IMG/VR virus record: IMGVR_UViG_3300034071_001262
Length of the DNA stretch: 64,000 nucleotides
Direction: 5' to 3' (one strand)
Source of the DNA: a virus
Shown here piece by piece: positions 10,099 to 34,060 of the stretch. Below the pieces are notes generated by a model. It saw nothing but the letters and a program-made list of their open reading frames with translations, was not told where the DNA came from and did not search any database. Position 1 is the first letter of the stretch; each line of letters starts with the position of its first letter. The translations under genes and the position numbers were made by a program.

Positions 10099-10218
10099 AG
10101 TTAATATAGATCTTTAACACAATTCTAACATAATAATTTTGATTTTTTAATCTACTATCATATAGTTGGTTTATTGTAAACCAATCCCGCCATATATCCT
10201 TCCTATGTGAGAAATATA

Positions 10219-16842: not shown

Positions 16843-18969
16843 ATGAAACTTCATGCTGGTATTAACACGATTGAAAAGTCTGGTGATTTTGAGGAAAGCC
16901 AGTTCAGTATCGAGGCATCTGCCAAGGCTTTCTTTATTCTTTCTGATGGTCTTTATTCTAATAAGATCCTTGCAGTAGTTCGTGAGCTTTCTACTAATGC
17001 TTACGATTCTCATGTAGATGCTGGCAAGAAAGATGTTCAATTTGATGTTCATCTTCCAACTAGGCTTAATCCTATATTTTATATTCGTGACTACGGCACC
17101 AGCATGAGTCATGAACATTGCATGGAACTTTACACTACTTATTTTCGTAGCACACGTAATAATAGTAATGACGCTGTTGGTTGCTTGGGTCTTGGCAGTA
17201 AGGCACCATTTGCATATGGTGACAGTTTTACTGTTGAAGCATATCTTGATGGTACTCGCCGTCTTTATAATGCTTATAAGAATGAGGACGGTAATCCCAT
17301 ATTTTCTTTGATGGATACCAGCGAAACCAATGAAGCAAATGGCATTAAGGTTTCAATTAGTGTTAATGAATATGACATAGATCGTTTTGTGCGTGAGGCA
17401 CGTAAGGTTTATGAATTCTTTAATGTTAGGCCAAATTTTATTGGCGAAGAAATTTATTACGATGCTGAGAATAAGACTCTGAGTGGTGATAATTGGTACT
17501 TTGATGATAACGATGATAAGAACTATATCATCATGGGGCAAATTGCATATCCTATCGACCATAATCAAATTATAGTTGATGGAATTGATTCATCCAAGAA
17601 GAACAGTAGATTTGTTGAATATTCTAGTGGTCTTAGGATCATTGTTAATATTGGAGATGTTGATATCACTCCAAGTCGTGAGTCTCTTTCTTATAGCAAG
17701 CAGACTAAGATCAATATCAATAATATTATCTCTAAGATATTGGACGATATTGCAACACAGATTGAACATGAAATTAAAAGTCAGCCTACTCTGTTTAAGG
17801 CACGAAGTAAGTATGTGCAGATTTCTGATCAGTGCATGTCTATAAAGACTGCTATGGAATCTCTCATGAAGTCAATAGTTTGGAATGATCAAAAACTGTT
17901 TGACAATATTGTGTCTGAAAGTATTGACATTCCAAATATGACAGTTAAACTTTTTGAGAAGTCGTCATATCGTTCTAAGATTGATATGAAGATAGACACT
18001 AACCGTATACATTTTACAGATGCTGTTAAGTTTGTTGTCGATGATCTTCCACGCGGAGGAATTAGTCGTACAAAGCAATATATCAAAGAATTTAATAACA
18101 ACGTAGCCTGTTATTTTTATAAGTTAGGACATGGAGAAACGATTGACAACTGTAGATTGTATGATATACTTGGTGGAGCGACAAAGGATGATGTTGTATT
18201 TACATCTAATCTTCCAAAGGTAGAATATAATCGTAATTCTTCTGGTGGAAATAGCGGGCCAATGATTCAAGCCCGAGTTTTTAATGAAGAGTCTGGTTGC
18301 TTTGAAGAGTGTGCGATGAGTGTAAAATATGAAAATGCATATTATTTTACAGAGTCAAAGGGTGAGGTTCATATTTCTTCTTCATCTTATGGTGTTGTAC
18401 AGATTTATTATCTTGAAAAGATCTTGTCTTACATGCATGATCATCACAATGATGAAGTGGAAGGAAAGACATTTTATATTGTCAAGCCATCTGTTGCAAA
18501 GAATAGGAAGCTAGACGAGAGATCGAATTGGCATTTGGGATATGAATTTATTAGAAAGATTTTGACCGATATTATTGCTTATAATCATCAAGATATTTAT
18601 GATATAATGAATCGTCAGAGTCTTTCCAGAAATTTTGCAACTAGATGGATTGAGATTATTAATATGACTAAAAATCCATCTGCTGTAAAAAACGTAATTT
18701 CTGAGTATAATGAATACGTATCTCGATTGGACAACATTTGTGAGAAGGTTGAAGTCATAAGGCAAATGGCTAGTTCTTTTAGATTTACGTTTCCCGGTAG
18801 AGATAGTAATTTTGTGGATGATCGTTTTGCTCCACGATTTGATAAGGAAATGTCTAAGTATAAGATTTTGCAGGTAATTCGTAATGCGCCTTACTCTGAT
18901 GAGGATAGGCAAATTATTGCCGACTATATTGATAGCATTGAACAAGTTTCTGTTCTTAATAAGGAGTGA
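16843..18969 (+). CDS. rIIA: rIIA-like protein (GHKL ATPase N-terminus)
   Basis: LYSNKILAVVRELSTNAYD, RDYGTSM, GCLGLGSKAPFAY, PSRESLSY. Confidence 0.88.
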   Translation: MKLHAGINTIEKSGDFEESQFSIEASAKAFFILSDGLYSNKILAVVRELSTNAYDSHVDAGKKDVQFDVHLPTRLNPIFYIRDYGTSMSHEHCMELYTTYFRSTRNNSNDAVGCLGLGSKAPFAYGDSFTVEAYLDGTRRLYNAYKNEDGNPIFSLMDTSETNEANGIKVSISVNEYDIDRFVREARKVYEFFNVRPNFIGEEIYYDAENKTLSGDNWYFDDNDDKNYIIMGQIAYPIDHNQIIVDGIDSSKKNSRFVEYSSGLRIIVNIGDVDITPSRESLSYSKQTKININNIISKILDDIATQIEHEIKSQPTLFKARSKYVQISDQCMSIKTAMESLMKSIVWNDQKLFDNIVSESIDIPNMTVKLFEKSSYRSKIDMKIDTNRIHFTDAVKFVVDDLPRGGISRTKQYIKEFNNNVACYFYKLGHGETIDNCRLYDILGGATKDDVVFTSNLPKVEYNRNSSGGNSGPMIQARVFNEESGCFEECAMSVKYENAYYFTESKGEVHISSSSYGVVQIYYLEKILSYMHDHHNDEVEGKTFYIVKPSVAKNRKLDERSNWHLGYEFIRKILTDIIAYNHQDIYDIMNRQSLSRNFATRWIEIINMTKNPSAVKNVISEYNEYVSRLDNICEKVEVIRQMASSFRFTFPGRDSNFVDDRFAPRFDKEMSKYKILQVIRNAPYSDEDRQIIADYIDSIEQVSVLNKE

Positions 18970-18972
18970 GTA

Positions 18973-19848
18973 ATGAAGTATATTATAGCAAATGATGGTA
19001 ATGTTAGTGCGATTGTTAGTAATCAGAGTTACTTTTTTGGTAAGTCTCATCCTAACTATGATAAGCTTGTAAATTGTCTGAAGAAGAATAATATTGAGAT
19101 GTTTGAGGCTTACTATGATGTTGTTTCTCATATTAATAATTTCTGTGAAGGATATATTGCTTGTGATGGTAATAATCTAATGTGGGATGGTATTAAGATG
19201 CCAAATATGTTTGGTGATACTATCATTGATATGATTAAGCAGGGATTTCCGTTTGAACCAATGCTTAATTTCCTTGATAATATGAGTCAGAATCCATCTG
19301 ATCATGCTATTGTTGAACTGTTTGACTTTATGAAGAATAAGAATATGCCAATTACATCTGATGGATGTTTTCTAGCATATAAGGCTGTTAAGAATAATTA
19401 TAAAGATATGTATTCTGGAACGTTTGATAATAGTGTTGGTAGCGTTTGTTCTGTTCCTCGTAGTAAGGTAGATAGCAATCGTGAAAATGGTTGTGGTCAT
19501 GGTCTACACGTTGGTGCAATTGATTATGCAAAGAGGTATGGTGGAATTAAGATTGATGATGAAGACGATGATAATGATGGTGGAAATCGCCTTATGATTT
19601 GTAAGGTTAATCCGCGTGACGTTGTGAGTGTTCCATCTGATTCTAAGTTTCAAAAGCTTCGTTGCTGTCGATATGAAGTGGTTGCAGAATTTACGTCTGT
19701 ATTTGATAAGGTTGTTCATCTTACGACAGAAGATATTCAGTATATGAATACCAAGAAGCGTAATCGTGAATGGGTTGAGGAAATTACTGCAAAGATTAAT
19801 AAGGTAAATACTGTCATCAAAAAGAACAGGGATGTTGTTTGTATTTGA
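18973..19848 (+). CDS. rIIB: rIIB-like protein
   Basis: PITSDGCFLAYK, CGHGLHVG, KVNPRDVVSVP, KLRCCRYEVV; follows rIIA. Confidence 0.88.
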   Translation: MKYIIANDGNVSAIVSNQSYFFGKSHPNYDKLVNCLKKNNIEMFEAYYDVVSHINNFCEGYIACDGNNLMWDGIKMPNMFGDTIIDMIKQGFPFEPMLNFLDNMSQNPSDHAIVELFDFMKNKNMPITSDGCFLAYKAVKNNYKDMYSGTFDNSVGSVCSVPRSKVDSNRENGCGHGLHVGAIDYAKRYGGIKIDDEDDDNDGGNRLMICKVNPRDVVSVPSDSKFQKLRCCRYEVVAEFTSVFDKVVHLTTEDIQYMNTKKRNREWVEEITAKINKVNTVIKKNRDVVCI

Positions 19849-21824: not shown

Positions 21825-23114
21825 ATGAATAGAAGACATTTTTTATCAATAGGATCATTATGTTTTAGTAGCTATACCCTTGCTTTGCCAGATATATTGA
21901 AAGCAGATACAATCAATGGAAAAAAAAAGAATTTAATCAATATATTTTTGGCTGGAGGACCACCACATCTCGATTTGTGGGATTTAAAACCAGACGCTCC
22001 ATCAGAAATAAGGGGATTATTTAAGCCAATTTCTACCAATGTAAATGGAATACAAATTTGTGAAGTATTCGATAAACTATCGAAAAGGATTGATAAATGT
22101 TCTATCATAAGATCAATAATTAATTCTCATGGAGATCATGCTGCATTTCAATGCATGACAGGATGGAAGCCAGATAATTTAAAAAATATTGGTGGTAGAC
22201 CATCTATAGGCTCTGTTATATCTAGACTACATGGCTCAAACGATCCATCTATACCAGCATACATTGGTCTAGCAGCACCAACGCAGCACATGCCTTGGAG
22301 TGATTCTGGTACTGGAGGATTTTTAGGCCAGACTTATAATCCATTTAAGCCAAGTGGGGATAGTATTAAAGATATGACTCTTCATATTGATGCTAAAAGA
22401 TTGTATGATAGAAAAAATCTATTATTACAATTAGATCAACTTAAGCAAGATATTGATTTTAATCTAAGATTTAATAGTTATGATAAACATGTTGAAAAGT
22501 CATTTGAAATATTGACAGATAATAAGTTATTACAAGCACTAGATATATCTAAGGTAAACAAAGACATATTAGAAAAATATGGAGATGGTAAGCCTTATAA
22601 ATATCAATATGATGGAGCGCCCACAGATAATAGTCAATTATTAATAGCAAAAAGACTGCTTGAAGCAGGGGCTAGAGTTGTATCTTTGAGTTATGGTAGA
22701 TGGGATAGTCATGGTGCTAATTTTGATTTAGTTAAAGATCATGGATCTAAATTAGATCAATGCTTATCGGCTTTAATAGATGACTTACAGACATCAGATA
22801 TGCTTGATAATACATTAGTTATAGTTTGGGGAGAGTTTGGACGAACACCAAAAATTAATAAGGACGCAGGAAGAGATCATTGGCCTCAAGTAAATAGCGC
22901 TTTATTATTTGGTGGCGGATTGAAACATGGACAGGTTATTGGATCAACGAATAAACTTGGTGAATATGCTGTAGATAGACCTGTTGATTTTCAAGAAGTG
23001 GTAGCTACAATATATAACACTCTTGGTGTAGAAACTTCCTCAACTACTATTATTGATACAACAGGAAGACCACAATACTTAGTAGACCATCCATATATGA
23101 AAGAATTGATATGA
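21825..23114 (+). CDS. DUF1501 family protein with Tat-like signal
   Basis: MNRRHFL; GGPPHLDLWDLKP; WDSH; GEFGRTPKIN; GRDHWP. Confidence 0.93.
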   Translation: MNRRHFLSIGSLCFSSYTLALPDILKADTINGKKKNLINIFLAGGPPHLDLWDLKPDAPSEIRGLFKPISTNVNGIQICEVFDKLSKRIDKCSIIRSIINSHGDHAAFQCMTGWKPDNLKNIGGRPSIGSVISRLHGSNDPSIPAYIGLAAPTQHMPWSDSGTGGFLGQTYNPFKPSGDSIKDMTLHIDAKRLYDRKNLLLQLDQLKQDIDFNLRFNSYDKHVEKSFEILTDNKLLQALDISKVNKDILEKYGDGKPYKYQYDGAPTDNSQLLIAKRLLEAGARVVSLSYGRWDSHGANFDLVKDHGSKLDQCLSALIDDLQTSDMLDNTLVIVWGEFGRTPKINKDAGRDHWPQVNSALLFGGGLKHGQVIGSTNKLGEYAVDRPVDFQEVVATIYNTLGVETSSTTIIDTTGRPQYLVDHPYMKELI

Positions 23115-24355
23115 ACAGAAGACATTTTTTATCGCATCTCAATGGAACAATTGCACTTACATCAAGTACAGTTTTATTGCAGAATTCTATTTTAGCAAAT
23201 GCTGAAAAACTTAAAAAACAAAACAAAAGTACAATATTATTATGGATGAGCGGTGGTCCTAGTACTATAGATATTTGGGATTTAAAACCAAATAGTCCAA
23301 GCGGTGGACCATTTAAACCAATATCTACTAATGTCGATGGAATACAAATATGCGAGCATTTACCATTATTATCTAAAAACATGGATAATCTTAGTATTGT
23401 TCGCAGTATGAGTACAAGGGAAGCTGATCATGGCAGAGGTAGATACTATATGCATACTGGATATGTGCCTAATCCTAATGTGGAATATCCAAGTTATGGA
23501 TCAGTTATATCTCATGAATTGTTAAAAAATACTACTAATCAGATAGGAATACCACCTTTTATTAGTATAGGTGGTGCCAGTATTGGTCCGGGGTTTTTAG
23601 GTGCTACATATTCCCCACTTGTTGTTGATTATAATGGAACAATTAGAAATTTACAATCAAGTGTAGATTATCAAACCGTGCAAAGAAGATTAGAAGTTCT
23701 ATCAGTAATAGAGAACAAATTTATTCAAGAAAAACGAGGAGAATTAGCAAGCGATCACGCTAAAATGTTGAATAAAACTGTTGATTTAATGTTTGGTCCA
23801 CATACTCAAGTCTTAAACATAAATAAAGAACCACAAAACATTCGTGATAGATATGGCAACACTTCATTTGGTAAAGGTTGTCTCATGGCAAGAAGACTAG
23901 TAGAAATTGGCGTACCATTCATAGAAGTAGATATGGGTGGATGGGATAATCATATGGATATTTTTACAACACTACCAGATAAACTATCTCAAATGGATAT
24001 TGGAATGAGTGCATTAATTGAAGATCTAGTAAGTAGGGGATTGTATGACAATACCACCATTATATGGATGGGGGAATTTGGTAGAACTCCAGATATAAAT
24101 AAAAATGCTGGTAGAGATCACTGGGCTAGAAGCTGGAGTGCTGTAGTTGGTGGTGGAAAATTAAACAAAGGCATAGTTGTTGGTGAAACTGATGATGATG
24201 GAAAAAAGGTAATAAGTGAAGCTTATTCTTCAGAAGATTTAATGGCAACTATACTAAAAAGTTTGGATATTTCACTTGAAACTACATTTACCTCTAAAAA
24301 TGGTCGTCCAATGAAGATTGCTAATTCTGGACGAGTAATTAAAGAACTATTCTAA
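23111..24355 (+). CDS. DUF1501 family protein with Tat-like signal
   Basis: MNRRHFL; GGPSTIDIWDLKP; GWDNH; GEFGRTPDIN; GRDHW. Confidence 0.93.
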   Translation: MNRRHFLSHLNGTIALTSSTVLLQNSILANAEKLKKQNKSTILLWMSGGPSTIDIWDLKPNSPSGGPFKPISTNVDGIQICEHLPLLSKNMDNLSIVRSMSTREADHGRGRYYMHTGYVPNPNVEYPSYGSVISHELLKNTTNQIGIPPFISIGGASIGPGFLGATYSPLVVDYNGTIRNLQSSVDYQTVQRRLEVLSVIENKFIQEKRGELASDHAKMLNKTVDLMFGPHTQVLNINKEPQNIRDRYGNTSFGKGCLMARRLVEIGVPFIEVDMGGWDNHMDIFTTLPDKLSQMDIGMSALIEDLVSRGLYDNTTIIWMGEFGRTPDINKNAGRDHWARSWSAVVGGGKLNKGIVVGETDDDGKKVISEAYSSEDLMATILKSLDISLETTFTSKNGRPMKIANSGRVIKELF

Positions 24356-24370
24356 ATATAAAGGATGTGG

Positions 24371-24398
24371 TTGACTCTCAAGCCAAATCGTGTAGAAT
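24371..24398 (+). promoter_or_regulatory. sigma70-type promoter TTGACT-16-TAGAAT
   Basis: intergenic, upstream of a GGAG RBS. Confidence 0.55.
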
Positions 24399-24429
24399 GA
24401 CGATATAACAGAGCTTATGGAGATAAACA

Positions 24430-24729
24430 ATGAAAAAAAGAATTGCTACTAAGCAAAAAACCCACAAACGATCAGACAAAATGGAAGTTATCGATCTAAA
24501 ATCTACATCCATACCACAAAATGAACTAGAAAACTTTGTAGGATATATAAAAAATCTACACAAGATAGATTGTATACGGATATGGGAAAATCATTTTAGA
24601 ATCAATGTTTGGATAGAAAAATATTGTGATAATTCAGTTTATCCAAAATATTCTATTACAAAATCATTTTTTGTATTTTATGATGGATGGCATATCGTAG
24701 ATAAAACAGATAATAAAATACTAACATGA
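24430..24729 (+). CDS. hypothetical protein
   Basis: GGAG RBS. Confidence 0.7.
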   Translation: MKKRIATKQKTHKRSDKMEVIDLKSTSIPQNELENFVGYIKNLHKIDCIRIWENHFRINVWIEKYCDNSVYPKYSITKSFFVFYDGWHIVDKTDNKILT

Positions 24730-25166
24730 ATAGAACATTAAAATGGGATATTAGATTTCTTGAGCTAGCTAAGTTGATTTCAACTTGGTCTAAAGATCCA
24801 TCAACGCAAGTTGGAGCAGTAATTACAGATGGCATCAAAGTAATATCTATTGGATATAATGGTTTACCAATGTCTGTACGTGACGATGTAAACATCCTCA
24901 ATAATAGAGAAGAAAAATATAAGTACATTATACATGCAGAAATGAATGCTATACTAGCTGCGAAATGTAATTTACATAATTTTACATTATACACATATCC
25001 ATTTCTTCCATGTACTAATTGTGCATCTATGACGATCCAAGCAGGAATAAAGAGAGTAGTATCTATAGTATGTCAAAATGACAGATGGAAAGAAAGATTA
25101 GAGCAATCTAAAGATATTTTTAATCGTGCAAATATTGATGTAGTTGAACTTGGTGTGTATATATAA
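24726..25166 (+). CDS. dCMP deaminase
   Basis: WSKDPSTQVGAVI, GYNG, HAEMNAI, PCTNC. Confidence 0.92.
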   Translation: MNRTLKWDIRFLELAKLISTWSKDPSTQVGAVITDGIKVISIGYNGLPMSVRDDVNILNNREEKYKYIIHAEMNAILAAKCNLHNFTLYTYPFLPCTNCASMTIQAGIKRVVSIVCQNDRWKERLEQSKDIFNRANIDVVELGVYI

Positions 25167-25192
25167 TTGCATATATCACATGGAGTATCAAT

Positions 25193-25498
25193 ATGTTCTA
25201 CAAAGAAGAGTTATGTGCAATAATGAATTTTGCATACGACTATCCAATAGACATAGAAGCCGCTTGGGCCGCTTATAATAGATTCAATCGACACATTCAA
25301 AGTGCTGACTTACATACAATTAAATATTTTCTGAAGATAATTTGCTACACAGACAATGAATTACTTTCTTTAAGAAATATTATGGCTGAAAGTGGAAAAG
25401 AATTAACGCCAAGTGAACTATCTCAGTATATTTTTATACTAAGCATATGTTTTTTTGATAGACTACATCAAACAATAGATACTCAAAAACATGAATAA
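25193..25498 (+). CDS. hypothetical protein
   Basis: GGAG RBS. Confidence 0.65.
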   Translation: MFYKEELCAIMNFAYDYPIDIEAAWAAYNRFNRHIQSADLHTIKYFLKIICYTDNELLSLRNIMAESGKELTPSELSQYIFILSICFFDRLHQTIDTQKHE

Positions 25499-26114
25499 AG
25501 TACAATTGATTGGATATTATGGTGGCGATGAAACACACGCATTATCAGCATGGACAAGCACATCAAGAGATTTAACAGAAGATAAAAGAAATAGAATAGA
25601 CAAGTTGCTTTATATGCTAGCATCTGAGGGACATCATACGCCATTTGAAAAGTCTTCACTACATTTCTTGATATGTACAGACATAGCAACACACATACAT
25701 ATATTAAAGCATCGCATTGGAATTTCTGTTAATGCAGAATCAGCCAGATATAAAGAAATCAAAGAGGATTGTTTTTATATACCTTCTGATTTTCCAGACA
25801 CTTGGCAACAAAAACTAGAAACATATACTAAGGCTGGGTTAGATTTGTATCATGAGTGCATCAAGGATTTAGTGGATACTCATGGTTTTAGTAGAAAAAG
25901 GGCTAAAGAGGCAGCAAGATTTTTTAGAACCTATAATACTCAAATTTCAGCAGATGTTATGTTTAACTTCAGAAGTTTTGCTCATTTTCTTGGGCTACGT
26001 AACACAGAAAATGCTCAATTAGAAGTCAAAAATATTGCAAAAGAAATGCTAGAATTAATAAAAAATATAGATGGTAATCCATTTAAGTATAGTTTAGAAG
26101 GTTTCAATCTATAG
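25491..26114 (+). CDS. thyX: flavin-dependent thymidylate synthase
   Basis: HHTPFE, KHR...ESARY (RHRx7SxR variant), NFRS, LRN..NAQLE. Confidence 0.9.
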   Translation: MNKVQLIGYYGGDETHALSAWTSTSRDLTEDKRNRIDKLLYMLASEGHHTPFEKSSLHFLICTDIATHIHILKHRIGISVNAESARYKEIKEDCFYIPSDFPDTWQQKLETYTKAGLDLYHECIKDLVDTHGFSRKRAKEAARFFRTYNTQISADVMFNFRSFAHFLGLRNTENAQLEVKNIAKEMLELIKNIDGNPFKYSLEGFNL

Positions 26115-26117
26115 AAA

Positions 26118-26467
26118 GGGCCGGTAAAGGTATCGATTGGATCGTAGTTATTATGGTTAGCAAGTAGTGGTTGATCGACAGGCCACTTTAAAAGTCGATT
26201 AAACGCTTTAACTGGCGTAACACAGTTAGCTCTTGCTGCTTGAGAAAGTAGCAACAATCTTAGGAAGCGATGAAGGTAGCGTCCAAAAGATTGTCGTTAA
26301 ATCCTTCTGCTGCTAGAATAGCCAACGGGTTCTAGCTAAGATTTGTTGGTACGGAAAGATGAATGTTGATTGTTCTTTAATCTTTCTTAAGAATTTATGA
26401 ACAACTAAACTTGTAGAAGCTATATTAACACTATCACAAGACATGGGTTCGACTCCCATCCGGTCCA
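26118..26467 (+). ncRNA. ssrA: tmRNA; tag ORF 26214-26243 encodes GVTQLALAA
   Basis: GGGCCGG/CCGGTCC-A acceptor with G3:U70; T-arm ATGGG-TTCGACT-CCCAT; PK1 (AGTGG/CCACT, ATCGAC/GTCGAT); TTAACT then GGC resume codon; LALAA*. Confidence 0.93.
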
Positions 26468-26478
26468 CTTAAATAATA

Positions 26479-26727
26479 ATGATCAAAAAATCAATCAAAC
26501 ATTTAAAAGAAAATAACATGCATTATGGTGAACATTTATTGTTTGCTTGGTCGCATGGTATAATGTGTATTGTGTCTGGTGCATTATTGATCATACATGG
26601 CATAATACCATCTTTATTTCCTAAGATTGGCTCTAGATTGATAGAAATATTAAACTATAGTTTCACTAATCGTAGGGGGTTTAAAAATGGCACTACTATC
26701 AGCAAGAACACTGATCGCGTTAACTAA
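26479..26727 (+). CDS. conserved small hypothetical protein
   Basis: HLKENNMHYGEHLLFA...IHGIIP.LF. Confidence 0.65.
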   Translation: MIKKSIKHLKENNMHYGEHLLFAWSHGIMCIVSGALLIIHGIIPSLFPKIGSRLIEILNYSFTNRRGFKNGTTISKNTDRVN

Positions 26728-26776
26728 AATTATTTTCTTTGGAAGAATGTTGTTTTCTGCTATATATCAAGTACTA

Positions 26777-27169
26777 ATGAAAACTAAAAAATGTATATAT
26801 TGTGGCATAGAAAAAACTGTTGTTCATTTTCCTAAACATATTATGTATAAGGATAAATTGGACATGAGATGTAATACATGTATTAAAAGTCAAAGAAAAA
26901 TAAGAAACTATCTTCATAAGACGGCGCCACCAAAACCAGAAGTGTGTTCGTGTTGTGGTAAACAGCCAATAAAATGGTGTTTGGACCATGACCATATATC
27001 TAACGAATTTCGTGGTTGGATATGTGAAAAGTGTAACACTGGAATTGGTAAATTAGGAGATGATGTTAATGGTTTAGTAATGGCATTAAATTATCTTTTA
27101 AGCTACGAATTAGAAAGAAAAAAAATAGACATGTTGACTGAATCAGAGTCTGATGCTATAATAGAGTAG
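26777..27169 (+). CDS. endonuclease VII-like His-Me finger protein
   Basis: CSCCG...CLDHDH...FRGWICEKCNTGIG. Confidence 0.85.
   Translation: MKTKKCIYCGIEKTVVHFPKHIMYKDKLDMRCNTCIKSQRKIRNYLHKTAPPKPEVCSCCGKQPIKWCLDHDHISNEFRGWICEKCNTGIGKLGDDVNGLVMALNYLLSYELERKKIDMLTESESDAIIE
27134..27162 (+). promoter_or_regulatory. sigma70-type promoter TTGACT-17-TATAAT
   Basis: upstream of ssb. Confidence 0.6.
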
Positions 27170-27212
27170 ACTTAGAGAAGTCTAGGGTTTTGATTAATTT
27201 TTAGGAGGTATT

Positions 27213-27542
27213 ATGTTAAACAATAGAATTATACTGAAGGGAAATTTGACTAAAGATCCAGAATATAAGACTGTTTCCGATAAGGAACTAGTCACATTTA
27301 GAATTGCTGTTAATGAATCTCTTGGAAATGGTAAAGAGGAAACCGTTTATCTTGATGTAGATGGATGGGGTAGTCATGCAGAGTATTCTAGAAATGTGGA
27401 GCTATCTAAGGGCGATAGAGTAATTATTGATGGTCGCCTAAGACAGCGTGATTGGGAAGACAAAGAAGGAAATAGCAGAACATCATATAGCGTTCTACCA
27501 AGTACCTTCTCTAAAGTTGTAAAGCCAAGTTTATCAAAGTGA
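27213..27542 (+). CDS. ssb: single-stranded DNA-binding protein (no acidic tail)
   Basis: NRIILKGNLTKDPE, FRIAVN, KGD.V..DGRLRQRDWEDKEG; AGGAGG RBS. Confidence 0.9.
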   Translation: MLNNRIILKGNLTKDPEYKTVSDKELVTFRIAVNESLGNGKEETVYLDVDGWGSHAEYSRNVELSKGDRVIIDGRLRQRDWEDKEGNSRTSYSVLPSTFSKVVKPSLSK

Positions 27543-27548
27543 GTTCAT

Positions 27549-27585
27549 TGAGGTTCGTTGCCGCCTTCGGGCGGCACGAACTTCA
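27549..27585 (+). terminator. C(UUCG)G hairpin after ssb
   Basis: TGCCGCC-TTCG-GGCGGCA with extended TGAGGTTCG/CGAACTTCA. Confidence 0.75.
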
Positions 27586-27593
27586 TTATTAAT

Positions 27594-27797
27594 ATGAGCA
27601 TTAATAGTATAATTTCAAAATTAAACGCTATAGATCAACAAATGTCGGTTCTATCAGAACGACAATATCAACCACAAATTAGTGCTTCTGATCAAAGAGA
27701 GATTCTGAAAAGAAAAAAGAAGCTAGAAAAAGATCAGAAAAAATTACTTAAAAGACTTCAAGCAATAAAAAATGGAAATAATGATAACTATGAATAA
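27594..27797 (+). CDS. hypothetical coiled-coil protein
   Basis: ORF after the hairpin. Confidence 0.55.
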   Translation: MSINSIISKLNAIDQQMSVLSERQYQPQISASDQREILKRKKKLEKDQKKLLKRLQAIKNGNNDNYE

Positions 27798-28047
27798 GAA
27801 TCATCGACAAGCGAAACATGAAAGAAGGCGTAGACTAGCACTAAAGAAAAGAGCAGAAAAAGATACTAATAAACTAGAGAGAGAAATAGAAAAAATCCAA
27901 AATAAAAATACACATATTGTAAAAGAAAGTTCTGAAAAGGAACATAGAAGAATTGCACTCTCTATGTTGCCTAAAGAAAAGATACAAATTACCAATATTA
28001 AAGAATATAGAAAAACACGAAAAAAGAAATTTAAGGGCGTAAAATGA
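27772..28047 (+). CDS. hypothetical basic protein
   Basis: K/R-rich ORF; start uncertain. Confidence 0.55.
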   Translation: MEIMITMNKNHRQAKHERRRRLALKKRAEKDTNKLEREIEKIQNKNTHIVKESSEKEHRRIALSMLPKEKIQITNIKEYRKTRKKKFKGVK

Positions 28048-28436
28048 GTAATGCTGGCTTTGCAAATTCTAGTGGTGCTATTATATATTTAATTTTATTA
28101 TTGCTGCCAACCACCCTATGTTTGGCTACACCATTAATTAATAAATTATATTCTAGAAATTATATTCGACAGACATGTAATGCTTCAAATACAGTCTATA
28201 AGACGATATATGTTGAAAAACCAGCTAAGATCAACAAAACTGTAAGACTTAATAATGAAAAACAACTAGAAACTTCTGCTGAATTACTTACAAATACTAG
28301 GCAGGCATTAGTAAAATTGGGATATAGGGTTAGAGATGCGAAGTCTGTAATAGAAAAAATGTGTAAAAATAAATGCTACACAGATGAGGTAAGTCTGATA
28401 CGTGACTGTGTATCATATACACACAAAAATAAATAG
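28044..28436 (+). CDS. membrane-anchored protein with RuvA C-terminal-like domain
   Basis: N-terminal hydrophobic helix; QALVKLGYRVRDAKSVI. Confidence 0.55.
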   Translation: MSNAGFANSSGAIIYLILLLLPTTLCLATPLINKLYSRNYIRQTCNASNTVYKTIYVEKPAKINKTVRLNNEKQLETSAELLTNTRQALVKLGYRVRDAKSVIEKMCKNKCYTDEVSLIRDCVSYTHKNK

Positions 28437-28445
28437 GAGAAAATC

Positions 28446-29360
28446 ATGCCACTACCAAAAAGAGGGGAAAAAGAAACAAGGGAACAATTCATGTCAAGAT
28501 GCATGAGTGATGAAACAGTACAAAAAGATTTCCCAAATCAAGACCAAAGAGTGGCAGTTTGCATGAGTAATGCTGGATTTAATGCAAAGTCTATGGATAC
28601 AGTAGATTTTGCATATAATTATGAAACATTTGGCTTTACTGAAGACTTAAATGAAGATAATTTTTATACCCCACTAGAGTGCGAATATGTTGATTTAGGC
28701 GAACAAACACAAGAATGGGATATTTCTAAAGAAAATGCAAGTTTATGGGAAAATATACGTAAGAAAAAGGAAAGAGAAGGAAAAAACTATAAGCCAGCAC
28801 AACCCGGAGATAAAGATAGACCAACTAAACAAGCTTGGAAGCAAGCAAAGTCTGACAGCGGAGATGCAATGGCTATAGAGCAATTGCAAAAAATGCATGA
28901 CCAATTGATGGGCATAGTATCAAAAATAAAAATGATGGATATTAAATTTCAAGATTGGACCAAAGATATGATATCTAAGGCAGAAATATATGTACAAAAT
29001 GTTTATGATTTTGTTTCATATTATGAGCCGGGTAAATATGAAGATGAATATGTGGAAGAGCCTTCAGAGCTTGAGGATGAGGATGAGGATATGGAAGATG
29101 ACAGTGCATATGCCTCTGAGTATCAAGGAAGAAAAGTCACATTAAATAAACCATTTAGAACACCAAAAGGTCCAAAAAAGTTTAGTGTTTATGTCAAAAA
29201 TGATAAAGGTAATGTAGTCAAAGTAAATTTTGGTGACCCAAATATGGAAATTAAAAGAGATATTCCAGCTAGGCGTAAAAGCTTTAGAGCAAGACATCAA
29301 TGCGATACTAATCCGGGTCCAAAGTGGAAAGCAAGATATTGGTCATGCAAAATGTGGTGA
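28446..29360 (+). CDS. modular phage protein (possible head-associated)
   Basis: MPLPK..E..EQFMSRCM, LWENIRKK, EYQGRKVTLNKPFR...ARYWSCKMW modules recur in large phages. Confidence 0.7.
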   Translation: MPLPKRGEKETREQFMSRCMSDETVQKDFPNQDQRVAVCMSNAGFNAKSMDTVDFAYNYETFGFTEDLNEDNFYTPLECEYVDLGEQTQEWDISKENASLWENIRKKKEREGKNYKPAQPGDKDRPTKQAWKQAKSDSGDAMAIEQLQKMHDQLMGIVSKIKMMDIKFQDWTKDMISKAEIYVQNVYDFVSYYEPGKYEDEYVEEPSELEDEDEDMEDDSAYASEYQGRKVTLNKPFRTPKGPKKFSVYVKNDKGNVVKVNFGDPNMEIKRDIPARRKSFRARHQCDTNPGPKWKARYWSCKMW

Positions 29361-29363
29361 CAT

Positions 29364-29783
29364 ATGAAAAAAAGAAATATACTTAAAGCAGTAGAAAATC
29401 AAATAGTTTGTCCAAAATCTACACAAGATATTAGCATCAATCTACAAAATAGACAAATATGTGTGGATAAGGCTAATTATGGTCCAGCAAATCCATCATT
29501 AAATGATGAACAGTTTTGGCAAAAAAAGGCTTTATTATTTAAAACATCCATTGAAAATGCAAAAACAATGAGATGTGCAAATTGTGCAGCTTTTATAAAA
29601 ACAGAAAAAATGTTAAACTGTATACATAAAGGAATAGCTGAACTATCCGAAGAAGAGCAAGAACTAAAGATAGCAGAGGAAATAACAGATAAAGCTAATC
29701 TTGGATACTGTGAACTATTTGATTTTAAATGTGCTGGTGATAGAACTTGTGATGCTTGGATTACTGGTGGTCCAATAACCTAG
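29364..29783 (+). CDS. conserved phage hypothetical protein (Cys-rich)
   Basis: CANCAAF...GYCELFDFKCAGDRTCDAW. Confidence 0.7.
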   Translation: MKKRNILKAVENQIVCPKSTQDISINLQNRQICVDKANYGPANPSLNDEQFWQKKALLFKTSIENAKTMRCANCAAFIKTEKMLNCIHKGIAELSEEEQELKIAEEITDKANLGYCELFDFKCAGDRTCDAWITGGPIT

Positions 29784-29809
29784 TATTAATTATAGAAATA
29801 AATATAAAA

Positions 29810-30259
29810 ATGATTAACAAGTTTATTCAACTAATGTCAGAATATAACAAGTCTGATGCTTTACAATATGGGAAACCCGGCCCAAAAGATCCAAGAAAAA
29901 CACCAGCACCTAAGAAGGATCAAAAAAGGGGTTCCAAAAAAAATCCACCAAAGAGTGCTGATAAACCAAATACCAAGATAGATTTTAGTAAGGATGTTGA
30001 AGATCAACTTAAAAGTATGGTAGCAGAGCATAATAAAAAGAATAAAGGTAGCAAAGCCACCCTTGGTATGTTAAAAACAGTATATAGAAGAGGAGCAGGA
30101 GCGTTTAGTACAAGCCATCATCCAAAGATGAGTAGACATGGATGGGCTATAGCAAGAATAAAAGCCTTTCTTTATCTCTTAAGAAATGGTAGACCGTCTA
30201 ATCCAAACTATAAACAGGATAATGATTTATTACCAAGTGGACATCCAAAGAAAAAATAA
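29810..30259 (+). CDS. basic phage hypothetical protein
   Basis: LKTVYRRGAGAF...WAIARIKAFL...DNDLLP.GHP. Confidence 0.7.
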   Translation: MINKFIQLMSEYNKSDALQYGKPGPKDPRKTPAPKKDQKRGSKKNPPKSADKPNTKIDFSKDVEDQLKSMVAEHNKKNKGSKATLGMLKTVYRRGAGAFSTSHHPKMSRHGWAIARIKAFLYLLRNGRPSNPNYKQDNDLLPSGHPKKK

Positions 30260-30280
30260 TATATACGTGGAATATATATA

Positions 30281-31111
30281 ATGCTTAATATCGGCTCTAA
30301 TGAAATAAAAAAAATATACTTTAGCTCTCAAGAAGTGCAAAAAATATATGGTGGCTCATTATTAATTCCAACACAATCAACCACCACTACAACAACCACT
30401 GCTGCTCCAACAACCACAACCACAACCACTGCGGCACCAACCACCACAACAACCTCAACTACTACTACCACTGCGGCACCATTTTCACCAATGGCAGTTA
30501 TGCTAACAACTGGTTCTTCATATACAGTACCAACTGGTGCCACCACTATGAAAGCATGGGCTATTGGAAGTGGTGGAAACTACGAAAAGGGGGCTGGTGG
30601 AACAGCATATAAAACTTGGAATGTTAATGGCGGCTCTTCTGTAGCTTATACAGTTGGTGCTGCTGTTAATAATGCTAATTATGGCTCATTTGGTAATAAT
30701 ACAACAATAACATATGATAACACAACCATTACCGGCTGTGGTGGAGGTAGGTTAATTAGTGGATTTGGATTCAATGGTGGTGACGGTGGCGCTAACGGTG
30801 GGGGTGGAGGATATCAAGGTGGTGGAGAATACGCTAACGGAGCAGTTGGTGGAAATACTCCACAGGGTGTGGGTAGGCCAGTATTTAAAGCAACAGATAT
30901 AGACGGCCTATTTGCCGTATTAAATCTATTAGGAATAGATCCAACTACATACGTTAATTATAATTATGATATGACTAATCCAAATGTATTTGGTGCTGGT
31001 ACTAAATTTGATAAGTATGGAAGTTTTGCCTCTGGCGGTATAGGCGGCGGTAATGGATTCGGCACAGTAGAAACTAGAGAAACTGGAGCAGTAATACTTT
31101 ACTTTACATAA
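30281..31111 (+). CDS. Thr-rich, Gly-rich protein (putative virion fibre/decoration)
   Basis: (T)nAAP mucin-like repeats followed by a glycine-rich domain. Confidence 0.65.
   Translation: MLNIGSNEIKKIYFSSQEVQKIYGGSLLIPTQSTTTTTTTAAPTTTTTTTAAPTTTTTSTTTTTAAPFSPMAVMLTTGSSYTVPTGATTMKAWAIGSGGNYEKGAGGTAYKTWNVNGGSSVAYTVGAAVNNANYGSFGNNTTITYDNTTITGCGGGRLISGFGFNGGDGGANGGGGGYQGGGEYANGAVGGNTPQGVGRPVFKATDIDGLFAVLNLLGIDPTTYVNYNYDMTNPNVFGAGTKFDKYGSFASGGIGGGNGFGTVETRETGAVILYFT
30378..30480 (+). repeat. coding tandem repeat, three Thr-run+AAP units
   Basis: ACN codon runs with GCN GCN CCA. Confidence 0.85.
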
Positions 31112-31113
31112 TC

Positions 31114-31590
31114 ATGCCAAGCATATTAACAAGCCCGAATGGAAATAGTATAATTCTAATTCCTCGCAGTGGATCGCACTCAATAGCAATGGCTATGTTA
31201 CAGTCCTTTTATCCAGATATAGAAATAACAGATTCATATCATCCTGCTTATTTTTATCCAATTAGCCAAGACAATGGTCAAAAATGTGTTATTGTTAGAA
31301 ATCCAATTGAAAGATTTCGATCTATGGTGGCTCATGGAAATAGAACAGTTGAAGAACAATTAGAAAATCCAATATACGGCTGCGAGTTCTGCCATATTAC
31401 AAATTATGACAGAGCATTTTTATTTGAAACGCAATTACAAGATTGCGCAAATTGGCTTGGAATTACAGTGCCATTGCCACATTTGGATGCTAGTGAAAAT
31501 AAACCTATTTTAACGCCAGAACAAGAAAATAGAGTTCGTGAAATATATGCAATAGATATTGAATTATGGGAGTCATTGATGAATCCATAA
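31114..31590 (+). CDS. sulfotransferase-like protein
   Basis: IPRSGSHSI (5'-PSB loop) and VRNPIERFRS (3'-PB motif). Confidence 0.7.
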   Translation: MPSILTSPNGNSIILIPRSGSHSIAMAMLQSFYPDIEITDSYHPAYFYPISQDNGQKCVIVRNPIERFRSMVAHGNRTVEEQLENPIYGCEFCHITNYDRAFLFETQLQDCANWLGITVPLPHLDASENKPILTPEQENRVREIYAIDIELWESLMNP

Positions 31591-31594
31591 TTTT

Positions 31595-32464
31595 ATGAGT
31601 CAAAAATTATTAACAATTGGTATGGCAACATATGATGATTATGATGGAGTATTTTTTACAATACAAAGTTTAAGAATGTATCATGAAATCTGTAACACAG
31701 ATTCTGTAGAATATATTGTTTTAGATAATAATCCAAATAGCGAAAGCGGAAAAGTTACAAAAAAATTTGTTGAAAACGGATTAAATCAACTTGGTAAATA
31801 CATACCAAAAGAAGATAAAAGTTCTAGTTTTAACAAATATGAAATAGTAAAACATGCTATTGGAAAATATGTTCTTATTATTGATTGTCATGTTTTATTA
31901 GTTAAAGGCGCTATTAATTCGTTATTAAATTATTATGCAGAAAATAAGGATTGTAAGAACTTGATACAGGGACCGTTGATTTATGATGATCTAAAAAATT
32001 TTTCTACTCATTTTGATCCCAATTGGAGCGGAGATATGTACGGAACATGGGCTACTGATCATGAAAAATATAAATCTAATAAACCATTTGAGATACTAAT
32101 GCATGGTATGGGTTTGTGTTCTTTTGAAAAGAAAAACTGGCCGGGAATATGTGAACACTTTAAAGGATTTGGTGGAGAAGAAGGATATATAGCAGAAAAA
32201 TTTAGAAGAAATGGTGGCAAAAATATATGCTTGCCACAACTTGGATGGGTACATAGATTTGGAAGACCGCTTGGTGTAAAATATCCATTAATACTTGAAG
32301 ATAGGATATGGAATTATTTTGTTGGATGGCTAGAATTAACTCAAGATCCAGATCATGAAATGATAAAACAAATTTTCTCATATTTTAAATCAAGAATACC
32401 AGAAAGCTCTATAGAAAACATATTTAATTCCGCTCTAAATATAATCAAACTAAAAAATGAATAG
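31595..32464 (+). CDS. glycosyltransferase family 2-like
   Basis: LTIGMATYDD, IVLDN, GKYVLIIDCH, GFGGEE. Confidence 0.8.
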   Translation: MSQKLLTIGMATYDDYDGVFFTIQSLRMYHEICNTDSVEYIVLDNNPNSESGKVTKKFVENGLNQLGKYIPKEDKSSSFNKYEIVKHAIGKYVLIIDCHVLLVKGAINSLLNYYAENKDCKNLIQGPLIYDDLKNFSTHFDPNWSGDMYGTWATDHEKYKSNKPFEILMHGMGLCSFEKKNWPGICEHFKGFGGEEGYIAEKFRRNGGKNICLPQLGWVHRFGRPLGVKYPLILEDRIWNYFVGWLELTQDPDHEMIKQIFSYFKSRIPESSIENIFNSALNIIKLKNE

Positions 32465-33728
32465 AAGAAATATATTACAGCTTGGCGCATTGAGTTGTAT
32501 TGGTATTAATAATACTAATTATTCAATGTTAATTGCAGATGATAACATTGCTACAGAAGCAAAAGCAAAATCTGTAATTTACATATATTTACCCGGTGGA
32601 TTTTCTACCCAAGAAACATTTGATCCTAAACCATTTGCCCCAGCAGAATACAGGGGGCCACTATCATCAATAGATACTTCAATTACTGGAATTAAATTTA
32701 GCGAATTATTGAAAGATACTGCCAAGATTGCAGATAAGATAACAGTAATACGATCTATGAACCATAATGAGGCAGCACATGAACGTGGAACACACAATAT
32801 GTTTACCGGATGGCGACCATCGCCAGCAATACAATACCCCAGTATTGGTTCTATAGTGGGTCATGAATTAGGTGGAAAAAACAATCTACCACCCTATATT
32901 ACAGTACCAAATGTACCTAATGAATTCGCTGGTGCCGGTTATTTAAGTCATTCATATTCTTCTTTTAGTCTTGGTGGAAATCCAGAAGATCCCAATTTTA
33001 AAGTAAGAGATCTAAGATTGCCAGAAGGAATATCGATACAAAGATTTGATAAAAGAAAAAAAATGTTGGAGGTCGTCAATAAAAATTTTGATGCAACACA
33101 AAAATCTGATGCTTTAGTTGCCATGAATTCATTTTATGAAAATGCTTTTGAGCTAATGGATTCTAATGCGGCTATAGAGGCATTTGATTTATCATTAGAA
33201 AAAGATGAAACAAAAGAAACATATGGCAAGAATTCTGCTGGCATGAGGATGTTATTATCAAGAAGGCTAGTAGAAGCTGGAGTAAGATTTATAACAATGA
33301 CATATGGTGGATGGGATCATCATGATAATATTGCTACTAATATGCAAACTCAATTACCACCTTTTGATAAAGCATTTTCAAGTTTAATACTTGATTTAGA
33401 ATCAAGAGGATTATTAGAATCTACATTGGTAGTAGTTGGAACAGAGTTTGGAAGAACACCAAAAATAAATCCAACTGCCGGAAGAGATCATTGGCCCAAG
33501 CTATATAGTGGAATAATGGCTGGTGGCGGTATAAAATCTGGAATAGTATATGGATCTAGCAATGATACGGCCACTGATCCACTAGATAATCCTGTGTCAG
33601 TAGAAGATTGGGCCTCGACTATATATACACTACTTGGTATTAATCCAGAAAAACATATTATGGCTCCCGGCAATAGACCTGTAAAAATAGTAGATGGCGG
33701 AAAACCAATATTAGAAATAATTGTATGA
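32457..33728 (+). CDS. DUF1501 family protein with Tat-like signal
   Basis: MNRRNIL; AKSVIYIYLPGG..QETFDPKP; GWDHH; EFGRTPKIN; GRDHWP. Confidence 0.93.
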   Translation: MNRRNILQLGALSCIGINNTNYSMLIADDNIATEAKAKSVIYIYLPGGFSTQETFDPKPFAPAEYRGPLSSIDTSITGIKFSELLKDTAKIADKITVIRSMNHNEAAHERGTHNMFTGWRPSPAIQYPSIGSIVGHELGGKNNLPPYITVPNVPNEFAGAGYLSHSYSSFSLGGNPEDPNFKVRDLRLPEGISIQRFDKRKKMLEVVNKNFDATQKSDALVAMNSFYENAFELMDSNAAIEAFDLSLEKDETKETYGKNSAGMRMLLSRRLVEAGVRFITMTYGGWDHHDNIATNMQTQLPPFDKAFSSLILDLESRGLLESTLVVVGTEFGRTPKINPTAGRDHWPKLYSGIMAGGGIKSGIVYGSSNDTATDPLDNPVSVEDWASTIYTLLGINPEKHIMAPGNRPVKIVDGGKPILEIIV

Positions 33729-34060
33729 CACTTGTTAGATTCTTAAATACTTTTCTTTGTATATTAGTATTTGCTGGCTTGACATCAAAATATTGTATTG
33801 CGGATGATTTATATATTTTTAGTGCCAAATGGTGTCCTTCCTGTGTTAATTTAAAAAAATTTCTAGATGATAATACAGATCTACATGACATATACAATAT
33901 TGTGATTATCGATATAGATGAATCACCAGATCTAAAAAAACATTTTAAAATTAGAGTTGTGCCAACTACTATCATTCTAAATGATGATTCTTTAGAAGTA
34001 GCAAGAATAACTGGATACGACAATTCTTATCAGAACAGACTAAAAAAATTAATGAAATAA
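33725..34060 (+). CDS. thioredoxin-like protein with signal peptide
   Basis: WCPSC; VPT cis-Pro loop; hydrophobic N-terminus. Confidence 0.85.
   Translation: MTLVRFLNTFLCILVFAGLTSKYCIADDLYIFSAKWCPSCVNLKKFLDDNTDLHDIYNIVIIDIDESPDLKKHFKIRVVPTTIILNDDSLEVARITGYDNSYQNRLKKLMK

Follow-up and report, generated by a model that had tools for sequence, protein, structure and literature searches.

Genes for DUF1501 proteins form a 'conserved genetic module' with those for PSCyt1, PSCyt2 and PSD1 in cellular genomes of Planctomycetes, Verrucomicrobia and Lentisphaerae (Kamneva et al. 2012, PMC3542564; He et al. 2017, PMC5615132). PSD1 and PSCyt2 are encoded in 41 copies each in Rhodopirellula baltica (PMC2754498), and neither DUF1501 nor PSCyt/PSD1 has been assigned a function, substrate or structure in the literature (PMC3542564, PMC5615132). 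Three DUF1501 proteins, termed D1, D2 and D3 (Table 1), are encoded in the stretch of viral DNA analysed here (64 kb, referred to as the window). They have in common with the cellular module the full-length Pfam family, the twin-arginine N-terminus and the invariant residues, and the DUF1501 proteins of the cellular four-gene module are 60 to 66% identical to D3 and D1. In contrast to the cellular proteins, D1 to D3 are phage-encoded, fully AT-ameliorated and placed in phage-only clades; within the window they are detached from PSCyt/PSD1, and three subfamilies are kept together.

Table 1. Coordinates of the DUF1501 genes and of the other features of the window discussed in the text.
Feature	Position	Strand	Description
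D1	21825..23114	+	DUF1501 protein, 429 aa, N-terminus MNRRHFLS; phage 'D1 clade'
D2	23111..24355	+	DUF1501 protein, 414 aa, N-terminus MNRRHFLS; phage 'D2 clade'
D3	32457..33728	+	DUF1501 protein, 423 aa, N-terminus MNRRNILQ; phage 'D3 clade'
Thioredoxin-like protein, putatively exported	33725..34060	+	111 aa; Pfam Thioredoxin_2/Thioredoxin E 1e-9
rIIA	16843..18969	+	phage hallmark upstream of D1/D2; PHROG 612 E 1e-123
rIIB	18973..19848	+	phage hallmark upstream of D1/D2; PHROG 609 E 3e-64
DUF1559 prepilin-like protein	10207..11139	+	Pfam SBP_bac_10 E 1.2e-42, N_methyl; NCBIfam TIGR02532, TIGR04294

All three genes are intact open reading frames, each near the full length of the Pfam model PF07394 (DUF1501; gathering cut-off 27 bits), which was matched by D1 with an E-value of 1.9e-82 (278 bits, model positions 2–382 of 390), by D2 with 6.2e-102 (342 bits, 2–390) and by D3 with 1.8e-109 (367 bits, 1–390). 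With matches over 381 to 390 of the 390 positions and pairwise identities of 32 to 35%, the original prediction of three divergent full-length DUF1501 genes is borne out. D1 most likely starts with the ATG at 21825 (MNRRHFL), as in its orthologues; an alternative frame from the TTG at 21777 adds merely 16 residues. The overlap of D1 and D2 is ATGA. The motifs WDxH, EFGRTP and GRDHW were found in each protein by a motif scan, and the invariant features of the family (GG, RS, H, TG, WDxH, EFGRT and GRDHW) are present throughout. In an alignment of 48 DUF1501 sequences, D1 to D3 included, 40 positions were invariant and 22 nearly invariant, and all of these are retained in the three phage proteins.

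The leaders of D1 to D3 begin with MNRRHFL or MNRRNIL, followed by a mildly hydrophobic stretch, and are predicted to be Tat-type signals; in D2, an ANA motif lies ahead of the predicted mature part. The twin arginine is near-invariant among the 48 aligned members, and a motif of two arginines, any residue and two hydrophobic residues was found in 231 of 256 AT-rich and 99 of 101 GC-rich relatives. The Tat-type N-termini claimed for all three genes were therefore confirmed.

An AF2 model of D3 (pLDDT 81.6) has the predicted core alpha/beta fold of the alkaline phosphatase superfamily, which comprises NPP, PafA-type alkaline phosphatases, type I sulfatases, phosphonate monoester hydrolases and LtaS. 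Alignments to NPP, PafA, sulfatases and phosphonate monoester hydrolase gave VIA-align Z-scores of 18 to 21 (about 20) over 245 to 280 residues, with an rmsd of 3.0 to 4.7 Å and 9–16% sequence identity, while Foldseek returned E-values of 1e-7 for LtaS and sulfatases and 2e-7 for LtaP. Unlike type I sulfatases, which carry the formylglycine signature (C/S)xPxR, none of the three proteins contains [CS]x[PA]xR. The metal-binding Asp of LtaS aligns with the invariant Glu of EFGRTP in weak profile matches (E 0.27 to 1.8), and the neighbouring LtaS His would presumably fall on the Phe of this motif. Because the second metal-binding Asp-His position of the superfamily reads Glu-Phe in DUF1501 in this weak alignment, the metal site appears to be non-canonical, and neither the motif scan nor the weak profile alignments identified the canonical Thr/Ser nucleophile and two-metal site. 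WDxH and GRDHW are putative metal-binding D/H motifs of the superfamily kind. With no known activity or solved structure for any DUF1501 member, what chemistry the proteins perform can only be guessed from their fold.

The third-codon GC content (GC3) of D1 to D3 is 17 to 18%, compared to 22–28% for the core genes of the phage and 67% for a Pirellulaceae homologue; the AT amelioration and the long residence in the phage that had been proposed are both upheld. The genes contain no internal stops and are under strong purifying selection (median dN/dS of 0.036 for D1, 0.109 for D2 and 0.065 for D3), values of 0.04 to 0.11 that refute relaxed selection. In a FastTree phylogeny, the AT-rich phage sequences fell into three monophyletic clades (SH support 100, 97 and 98), each nested in or sister to GC-rich Planctomycetota/PVC sequences, in agreement with IQ-TREE; the D3 clade is sister to the DUF1501 proteins of a Pirellulaceae four-gene module. 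A single phage clade was rejected by the AU test (delta lnL 737, p 1.9e-86). Duplication within the phage is rejected by this test and by the position of the three phage-only clades among GC-rich PVC sequences. The question of capture or duplication, which the original prediction had left to phylogeny, is answered by trees indicating that D1, D2 and D3 were captured separately from PVC-type cellular DUF1501 or at least represent distinct ancient lineages of it.

Relatives are widespread in viral and metagenomic data. D1 has 22 IMG/VR loci, and its orthologues in metagenomes and in the IMG/VR contig 3300042521_002419 are 86% identical. For D2, relatives were found in at least 121 IMG/VR stretches (59–88% identity); its best 120 homologues are all AT-rich and about 414 aa long, and the nearest other clusters formed at 50% identity are at most 47% identical. 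D3 has 24 IMG/VR loci (56–71% identity). Related IMG/VR genomes, among them complete ones, reach 150 to 238 kb, and all 20 of the 20 large related contigs carry one to four DUF1501 genes. In marine relatives, D3-type, D1-type and D2-type genes are located in one island (54 to 60% identity); judged by this sharing among distant relatives, the trio appears to be an old association. No DUF1501-matching family is contained in PHROGs v4, and among GenBank phages D2 had no match, and the single match to D3 was weak and partial, with 28% identity over 39% of the query. Phage-borne multi-copy DUF1501 is described by no paper in the literature searched, so that this part of the claim of novelty stands, but UniProt/BFVD already lists a DUF1501 protein, named automatically, from an uncultured phage.

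The absence of a DUF1549/DUF1553 (PSCyt/PSD1) partner from the window was confirmed: tblastn with phage and cellular PSCyt/PSD1, PPC and VWA queries, covering 64 kb of a phage genome whose length is about 148 kb or more, gave no match below E 0.07, and every window ORF above 500 aa was assigned to something other than PSCyt/PSD1. In related phages and in the nearest cellular kin, PSCyt2/PSD1 does adjoin DUF1501. A cassette of related phages consists of a D2-type gene, VWA, PSCyt1/2-PSD1, a fourth DUF1501 gene, a D1-type gene (86% identical, not present in every such cassette) and thioredoxin; these phages carry the whole pair known from the cellular module, with the CxxCH of PSCyt1/2-PSD1 intact. 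The nearest cellular kin of D1 (about 60% identical) are found in Planctomycetaceae/Pirellulales MAGs, and D3 is 65 to 66% identical to the Pirellulaceae MAG protein P0117; Gemmatales and Aureliella are also among the cellular kin. Those of D3 and D1 are located in DUF1501/PSCyt2-PSD1/PSCyt1-WD40 modules, and one of D2 adjoins PSCyt2/PSD1. Two observations lend support to the proposal that the phage proteins plug into a periplasmic system of the host, which is a reasonable hypothesis: for each of the three types the closest cellular relatives adjoin PSCyt2/PSD1, and related phages encode the partner in their own genomes.

On gene content alone, the host of the phage most likely belongs to Planctomycetota (PVC). 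A further clue is the DUF1559 protein, which has an N-methylation signal and an H-X9-DG C-terminus and belongs to a family typical of PVC bacteria. The GC content of the phage (32%) is far below that of planctomycete relatives (57% in the four P0117 loci), a gap that counts against a PVC host.

The explanation we consider somewhat better than even is that D1 to D3 are host-derived periplasmic auxiliary enzymes feeding the host DUF1501/PSCyt system. The genes are located in a phage genome and combine cellular ancestry with amelioration and purifying selection, as is usual for phage auxiliary genes. The proteins would be made during infection from an early or replication-side gene block and exported in folded form to the host periplasm, where, as catalytic subunits, they might add to the DUF1501 proteins of the host or take their place. 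In the phage studied here they would pair with host-encoded PSCyt/PSD1, and in relatives with a VWA plus PSCyt1/2-PSD1 cassette with phage-encoded partners. The proteins would probably use metal to hydrolyse or transfer a phospho- or sulfo-ester on some substrate in the periplasm, and a host nutrient or envelope process would be kept running for the phage, as with other auxiliary metabolic genes. The cyanophage genes pstS and phoA are auxiliary genes for exported or nutrient-acquisition proteins; like these, D1 to D3 are host-derived, ameliorated, under purifying selection and conserved in their lineage, with a predicted extracytoplasmic action. Unlike pstS and phoA, they belong to the DUF1501 family, of which a genome carries three to four paralogue types, in some cases together with a phage-encoded haem-motif partner.

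Other explanations draw on the surroundings of the genes. On a single strand, the window encodes rIIA, rIIB, endonuclease VII, a split DnaE, DnaB, primase, RecA, RNR and ThyX as well as five tRNAs and a tmRNA. D1 and D2 are set among genes of nucleotide metabolism (GMP reductase, a deoxyribosyltransferase-like gene, dCMP deaminase, ThyX), and phosphate-acquisition genes are common phage auxiliary genes. NPP/PafA-like phosphodiesterases or phosphatases acting alone might release phosphate or nucleosides from external organic esters for phage DNA synthesis, without a PSCyt partner, as would suit the partner-free window and the top structural Z-scores, which were obtained with nucleotide pyrophosphatase/phosphodiesterases and PafA-type alkaline phosphatases. 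We regard such scavenging as unlikely: sulfatases and phosphonate monoester hydrolases score only slightly lower in Z, the canonical active site was not identified, the nucleotide-gene neighbourhood is not conserved in relatives, and the closest cellular kin are linked to partners. An equally low probability is given to remodelling of the envelope, in which the exported enzymes and a thioredoxin would alter a periplasmic or outer-envelope component, leading to a superinfection block, preparation of lysis or phage-directed surface glycans. YejM-type and LtaS-type envelope enzymes are among the fold matches, the phage has the pilin-like DUF1559 gene, and D3 is translationally coupled to a GT2 gene (8-nt overlap) and to the putatively exported thioredoxin (ATGA overlap; hydrophobic N-terminal leader, WCPSC motif) in a block with sulfotransferase-like, nucleotidyltransferase and GT4 genes. 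However, the adjacency of GT2 and D3 is restricted to near-identical relatives; a GT2 homologue was found in none of 104 related loci, 49 of which have D3-like genes, and elsewhere DUF1501 genes adjoin VWA, PSCyt/PSD1 or endonuclease VII genes. Relatives do not conserve the link to neighbouring glycosylation genes. The thioredoxin-like gene is possibly tied to the DUF1501 genes, and thioredoxin genes also flank the DUF1501 cassettes of related phages and one cellular D1-type module.

That the proteins are non-catalytic decoys or inhibitors, which would bind host PSCyt/PSD1 and shut the host system down, is improbable. Such a role would fit a window without the partner and partner-linked cellular kin, but all 40 family-invariant and the 22 nearly invariant positions are kept in the three copies, dN/dS is as low as in enzymes, and related phages carry the partner, for which a decoy has no need; the 'decoy subunits' of the original prediction are accordingly disfavoured. 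Very improbable is an origin outside the phage, either by misassembly of cellular DNA onto a phage contig or because the AT-rich contigs are themselves cellular. Pfam models for the terminase C-terminal domain, the Gp23 capsid and the tail sheath had no match in five complete related records, and some related contigs were placed in MAG bins. Against this, composition and GC3 match the phage, hallmark genes on both sides confirm the phage setting of the three genes, three related genomes end in direct terminal repeats, and the related records are classed as viral by IMG/VR/CheckV. An assembly chimera is excluded because four independent assemblies (two from JGI, one from ENA and one from NCBI) all show the same order of genes.

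Our preferred reading of D1 to D3 as auxiliary enzymes of the host DUF1501/PSCyt system can be extended, more tentatively and with the odds against it, to a so far undescribed clade of planktonic Planctomycetota/PVC phages of 100 to 240 kb. These phages might hold a multi-paralogue DUF1501 toolkit that predates the marine/freshwater split, with or without their own VWA and haem-motif PSCyt/PSD1, and their enzymes might form hybrid complexes with host PSCyt/PSD1, thereby taking over a periplasmic, possibly redox-coupled, ester-processing system central to PVC physiology. Phages keep only genes that pay, and three to four types at dN/dS of about 0.04 to 0.1 across a deep phage clade argue for a rate-limiting periplasmic role in infection and for types that are not redundant. 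DUF1501 and PSCyt/PSD1 rank with the most strongly expanded gene families in Planctomycetota and Verrucomicrobiota, and to our knowledge very few planctomycete phage-host pairs are known. The DUF1501 copies strongly mark the host of uncultured phages that form a large, widespread group. Being compact and located in small cassettes, they also lend themselves naturally to assays, structural work and co-folding, so that the phage offers a compact handle on the orphan DUF1501 system and on its own host. If the proteins do form hybrid complexes, the phage versions would be the minimal natural form of this system and would reveal its substrate.

Each of the three DUF1501 genes (D1, D2 and D3) matches the Pfam model (PF07394) over almost its whole length, with only 32 to 35% pairwise identity among the proteins; NCBIfam holds no model for any of them and PHROGs no family for D3. 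After the start MNRR(H/N)(F/I)L, all three proteins continue with a mildly hydrophobic segment, and they share the motifs WDxH, EFGRTP and GRDHW, which confirms the original prediction of three intact, full-length, leader-bearing and mutually diverged genes. D1 runs into D2 through a shared ATGA, the GT2 gene upstream of D3 reaches 8 nt into it, and D3 in turn shares an ATGA with the translationally coupled gene of an exported thioredoxin downstream. A functional tie of D3 to the glycosylation/sulfation island was rejected, as this adjacency is conserved only in near-identical relatives. The small protein encoded between GMP reductase and D1 showed a weak match to nucleoside 2-deoxyribosyltransferases (E 9e-4, below the cut-off).

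A non-phage origin of these genes is contradicted by their GC3 of 17 to 18%, which lies at or below that of the phage core genes (22 to 28%) and compares with 67% in the closest Pirellulaceae homologue, in line with the AT amelioration originally proposed. It is also contradicted by the gene order, which is identical in four independent assemblies (two from JGI, one each from ENA and NCBI): D1, D2, dCMP deaminase, ThyX, endonuclease VII and SSB, further on GT2, D3 and thioredoxin, then GT1, and finally the sigma-like gene. The same synteny and matching GC3 rule out a chimeric assembly, which had been named as a possible refutation. Protein sequences identical to D3 are recorded in 154 sequence blocks.

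The surroundings of the three genes are those of a phage. All sizeable genes of the window lie on the plus strand, and besides rIIA (PHROG 612, E 1e-123) and rIIB (PHROG 609, E 3e-64) it encodes endonuclease VII, SSB, ThyX, dCMP deaminase, GMP reductase, a class II-like ribonucleotide reductase, RecA/UvsX, DnaB, a DnaG-type primase and a PD-(D/E)XK exonuclease. DNA polymerase III alpha is split in two; both halves and the ORF between them have homologues in 11 to 12 related loci, and the split DnaE shares at most 31% identity with any GenBank phage. The GC content is about 32% except in the first 2 kb (1-2000, 47.8%), where long ORFs overlap on both strands. Since identical copies of the 153-aa ORF in other assemblies match Pfam Sigma70_r2/r4, it is regarded as a phage-encoded sigma-like factor. 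In many relatives a D2-type gene is located close to the tmRNA/endonuclease VII region. The promoter/terminator scan of the window was uninformative (106 promoter-like sites, 89 expected).

Coordinates of features in the window and in related loci
Feature	Coordinates	Strand	Description
ORF in GC-rich start	332-1537	+	PHROG 1362 (unknown function); weak match to DUF932
Overlapping ORF	227-1342	-	
DUF1559 prepilin-like protein	10207-11139	+	SBP_bac_10 E 1e-42; N-methylation signal; H-X9-DG C-terminal domain
Five tRNAs (Leu-TAA, Thr-TGT, Gln-TTG, Asn-GTT, Ser with anticodon ACT) and tmRNA (tag GVTQLALAA)	13533-14420 and 26118-26468	+	
180-aa protein	21222-21764	+	45-48% conserved in five related loci
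D1	21825-23114	+	429 aa; Pfam DUF1501 E 1.9e-82
D2	23111-24355	+	414 aa; Pfam DUF1501 E 6.2e-102
D3	32457-33728	+	423 aa; Pfam DUF1501 E 1.8e-109
Exported thioredoxin	33725-34060	+	111 aa; hydrophobic leader, WCPSC site
Sigma-like ORF	43024-43485	+	153 aa
DNA polymerase III alpha, two ORFs	59608-61203 and 62112-63659	+	
ORF between the halves	61413-62102	+	229 aa
Phage cassette, L231	3579-13244		Thioredoxin 11924-12376
Phage cassette, L034	5076-13988	-	Thioredoxin 5944-6399
Phage cassette, L041	10001-19310		Thioredoxin 18870-19310; also PspC, trypsin-like and M28 peptidase genes
Thioredoxin beside cellular D1-type module, L234	4445-5845		
Marine island, L100	4357-11215		Copy ~34% identical to D3, then D3-, D1- and D2-type
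Marine island, L113	1707-11209		Same order as L100

DUF1501 homologues separate cleanly by amino-acid composition into AT-rich and GC-rich sets, a label used as a proxy for phage and cellular that was checked on a subset of contexts; all AT-rich contexts checked were phage-like, the GC-rich ones cellular and from named Planctomycetota. With FastTree (145 rows), D1, D2 and D3 each fell into an AT-rich clade of their own (support 100, 97 and 98), every one of which either lies within GC-rich sequences or is their sister group. IQ-TREE (47 rows) gave the same picture, and a fourth DUF1501 type, found only in related phages, formed another separate clade. A tree joining all phage rows of D1, D2 and D3 was rejected by the AU test (delta lnL 737.5, p 1.9e-86), a very large margin even though the constrained group was chosen after the first tree. 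The three genes are therefore not in-phage duplicates, and the choice between capture and duplication left by the original prediction falls to three separately acquired lineages. D1, D2 and D3 descend from different cellular DUF1501 subfamilies.

Median dN/dS values (Nei-Gojobori) among phage orthologues with usable dS were 0.036 for D1 (22 pairs), 0.109 for D2 (93 pairs) and 0.065 for D3 (120 pairs); as many pairs are near dS saturation, these values rest on the closer ones. No copy of D1, D2 or D3 contained an internal stop. Relaxed selection and pseudogenes, the former also envisaged at the outset as a refutation, are hence ruled out. In marine relatives (e.g. L100 and L113), D3-type (57 to 59% identity), D1-type (54%) and D2-type (59 to 60%) genes are adjacent, together with a further copy of about 34%; tandem islands of three to four DUF1501 genes occur in these two loci as well as in L085 and L099. 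These three types thus remained together across a deep division within the phage clade, and this joint retention argues that they are not redundant. DUF1501 genes also move between phages, since one IMG/VR contig (3300042521_002419) carries a D1 86% identical to that of the window and a D2 of only 68%.

In IMG/VR, relatives of D1 were found at 22 loci (51 to 86% identity), of D2 in at least 121 stretches (59 to 88%) and of D3 at 24 loci (56 to 71%). The related loci have 29 to 45% GC and replication genes in common with the window. All 20 large contigs reached via relatives of D1 to D3 (65 to 238 kb; ten at least 90% complete according to CheckV, three with direct terminal repeats) encode DUF1501 proteins, one to four each. 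Searches of five complete relatives with the Terminase_6C, Gp23 and sheath Pfam models gave no match, so that no structural phage gene was identified by these three. Among deposited GenBank phages, D3 has one weak partial match (39% of the query, 28% identity) and D2 none. The original prediction that a phage module of this kind had not been described holds for the searched literature, as the full-text search (DUF1501 and phage; DUF1501/DUF1549/DUF1553/PSCyt) returned no paper discussing phage copies; it does not hold entirely for databases, where one BFVD entry bears the automatic name 'DUF1501 domain-containing protein [uncultured Caudovirales phage]'.

The nearest cellular kin of the phage proteins work beside PSCyt/PSD1 partners. 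A D3-type protein from a Pirellulaceae MAG (P0117, 57% GC) is the DUF1501 at the head of a module that continues with a PPC-like protein, PSCyt2/PSD1 and PSCyt1-WD40, the four-gene form of Kamneva et al. 2012 (PMC3542564). The D1-type protein P0197 heads a similar module with a thioredoxin-PDZ gene directly upstream, and the D2 relative P0363 directly follows a PSCyt2/PSD1 gene. Neither such a partner nor a VWA gene was found within the 64-kb window, itself part of the phage genome, which bears out the absence of DUF1549/DUF1553 noted originally. The partner is, however, present in related phages. A genome of 152 kb (G002, CheckV 100%), the 233-kb contig behind L041 and contig 3300042521_002419 have a common cassette of a D2-type DUF1501, a VWA protein (624 aa, nearest Atlas clusters from Planctomycetota), a PSCyt1/PSCyt2/PSD1 protein (about 790 aa, signal peptide, intact CxxCH), a fourth-type DUF1501, in one of the three a D1-type DUF1501, and a thioredoxin. 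With this PSCyt/PSD1 protein, a single-sequence scan of IMG/VR gave no match and a two-sequence alignment three loci. PSD1 was found in only one of the 20 large contigs, which means that the clade, like the window, mostly carries DUF1501 genes without the partner.

No solved structure of a DUF1501 member was found by sequence; the best single-sequence match (E 0.19) was to unrelated proteins, and profile searches gave only weak LtaS/sulfatase stretches. In these, the LtaS strand ending in the metal-binding Asp-His is aligned with the strand ending in the invariant Glu-Phe of EFGRTP; from the motif order, WDxH and GRDHW may supply the other Asp/His ligands. The AlphaFold2 model of D3, the only one of the three modelled (48-sequence alignment, mean pLDDT 81.6, pTM 0.83), is disordered in the first 30 residues, as expected for a leader. 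VIA-align matched it to nucleotide pyrophosphatase/phosphodiesterases (Z 20 to 21), PafA-type phosphatases (Z about 20), and sulfatases and phosphonate monoester hydrolase (Z 18 to 19), with 245 to 280 residues aligned at an rmsd of 3.0 to 4.7 A; Foldseek matched it to LtaS-type enzymes and sulfatases (E 2e-7 to 1e-5). Judged by this model, D1 to D3 are clear members of the alkaline phosphatase superfamily, which supports the kinship proposed earlier, whereas the canonical chemistry of NPP/AP enzymes could not be demonstrated for them. The absence of the CxPxR formylglycine signature excludes a type I sulfatase.

That the phage proteins act as decoys is opposed by the family alignment, in which 40 of 40 invariant columns are kept in D1, D2 and D3; this fits working enzymes. 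Less probably, they might scavenge phosphate or nucleotides on their own, or serve envelope remodelling or superinfection exclusion; the neighbourhood of their cellular kin favours a role beside PSCyt/PSD1.

Gene content alone points to a PVC bacterium, most likely a planctomycete, as host, because the GTDB representatives with the closest D3 relatives (51 to 61% identity) are mostly Pirellulales, Pirellulaceae, Mariniblastus, Planctomyces and Gemmataceae, with some Verrucomicrobiota, and because of the DUF1559/H-X9-DG gene. This family is typical of Planctomycetota/Verrucomicrobiota and forms the second host clue. A homologue was found in one of 104 related loci (99% identical); the DUF1559 model had no match in five complete relatives, nor in any control of the same search.

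A phage carries three DUF1501 genes that are old, intact, leader-bearing and under strong selection, each acquired separately; the phage carrier, the phage-only clades, the joint retention of three types and the detachment from the partner are new here. The thioredoxins next to D3, in the related cassettes and by the cellular module may, speculatively, assist either the enzymes or the Cys-rich partner with the haem motif. In the most probable mechanism, D1 to D3 would be produced during infection and exported folded via the host Tat system. In the periplasm they would then add to the DUF1501 subunits of the host or take their place, working with the PSCyt/PSD1 partners of the host. A phospho- or sulfo-ester processing step may in this way be kept or redirected to the benefit of phage production.
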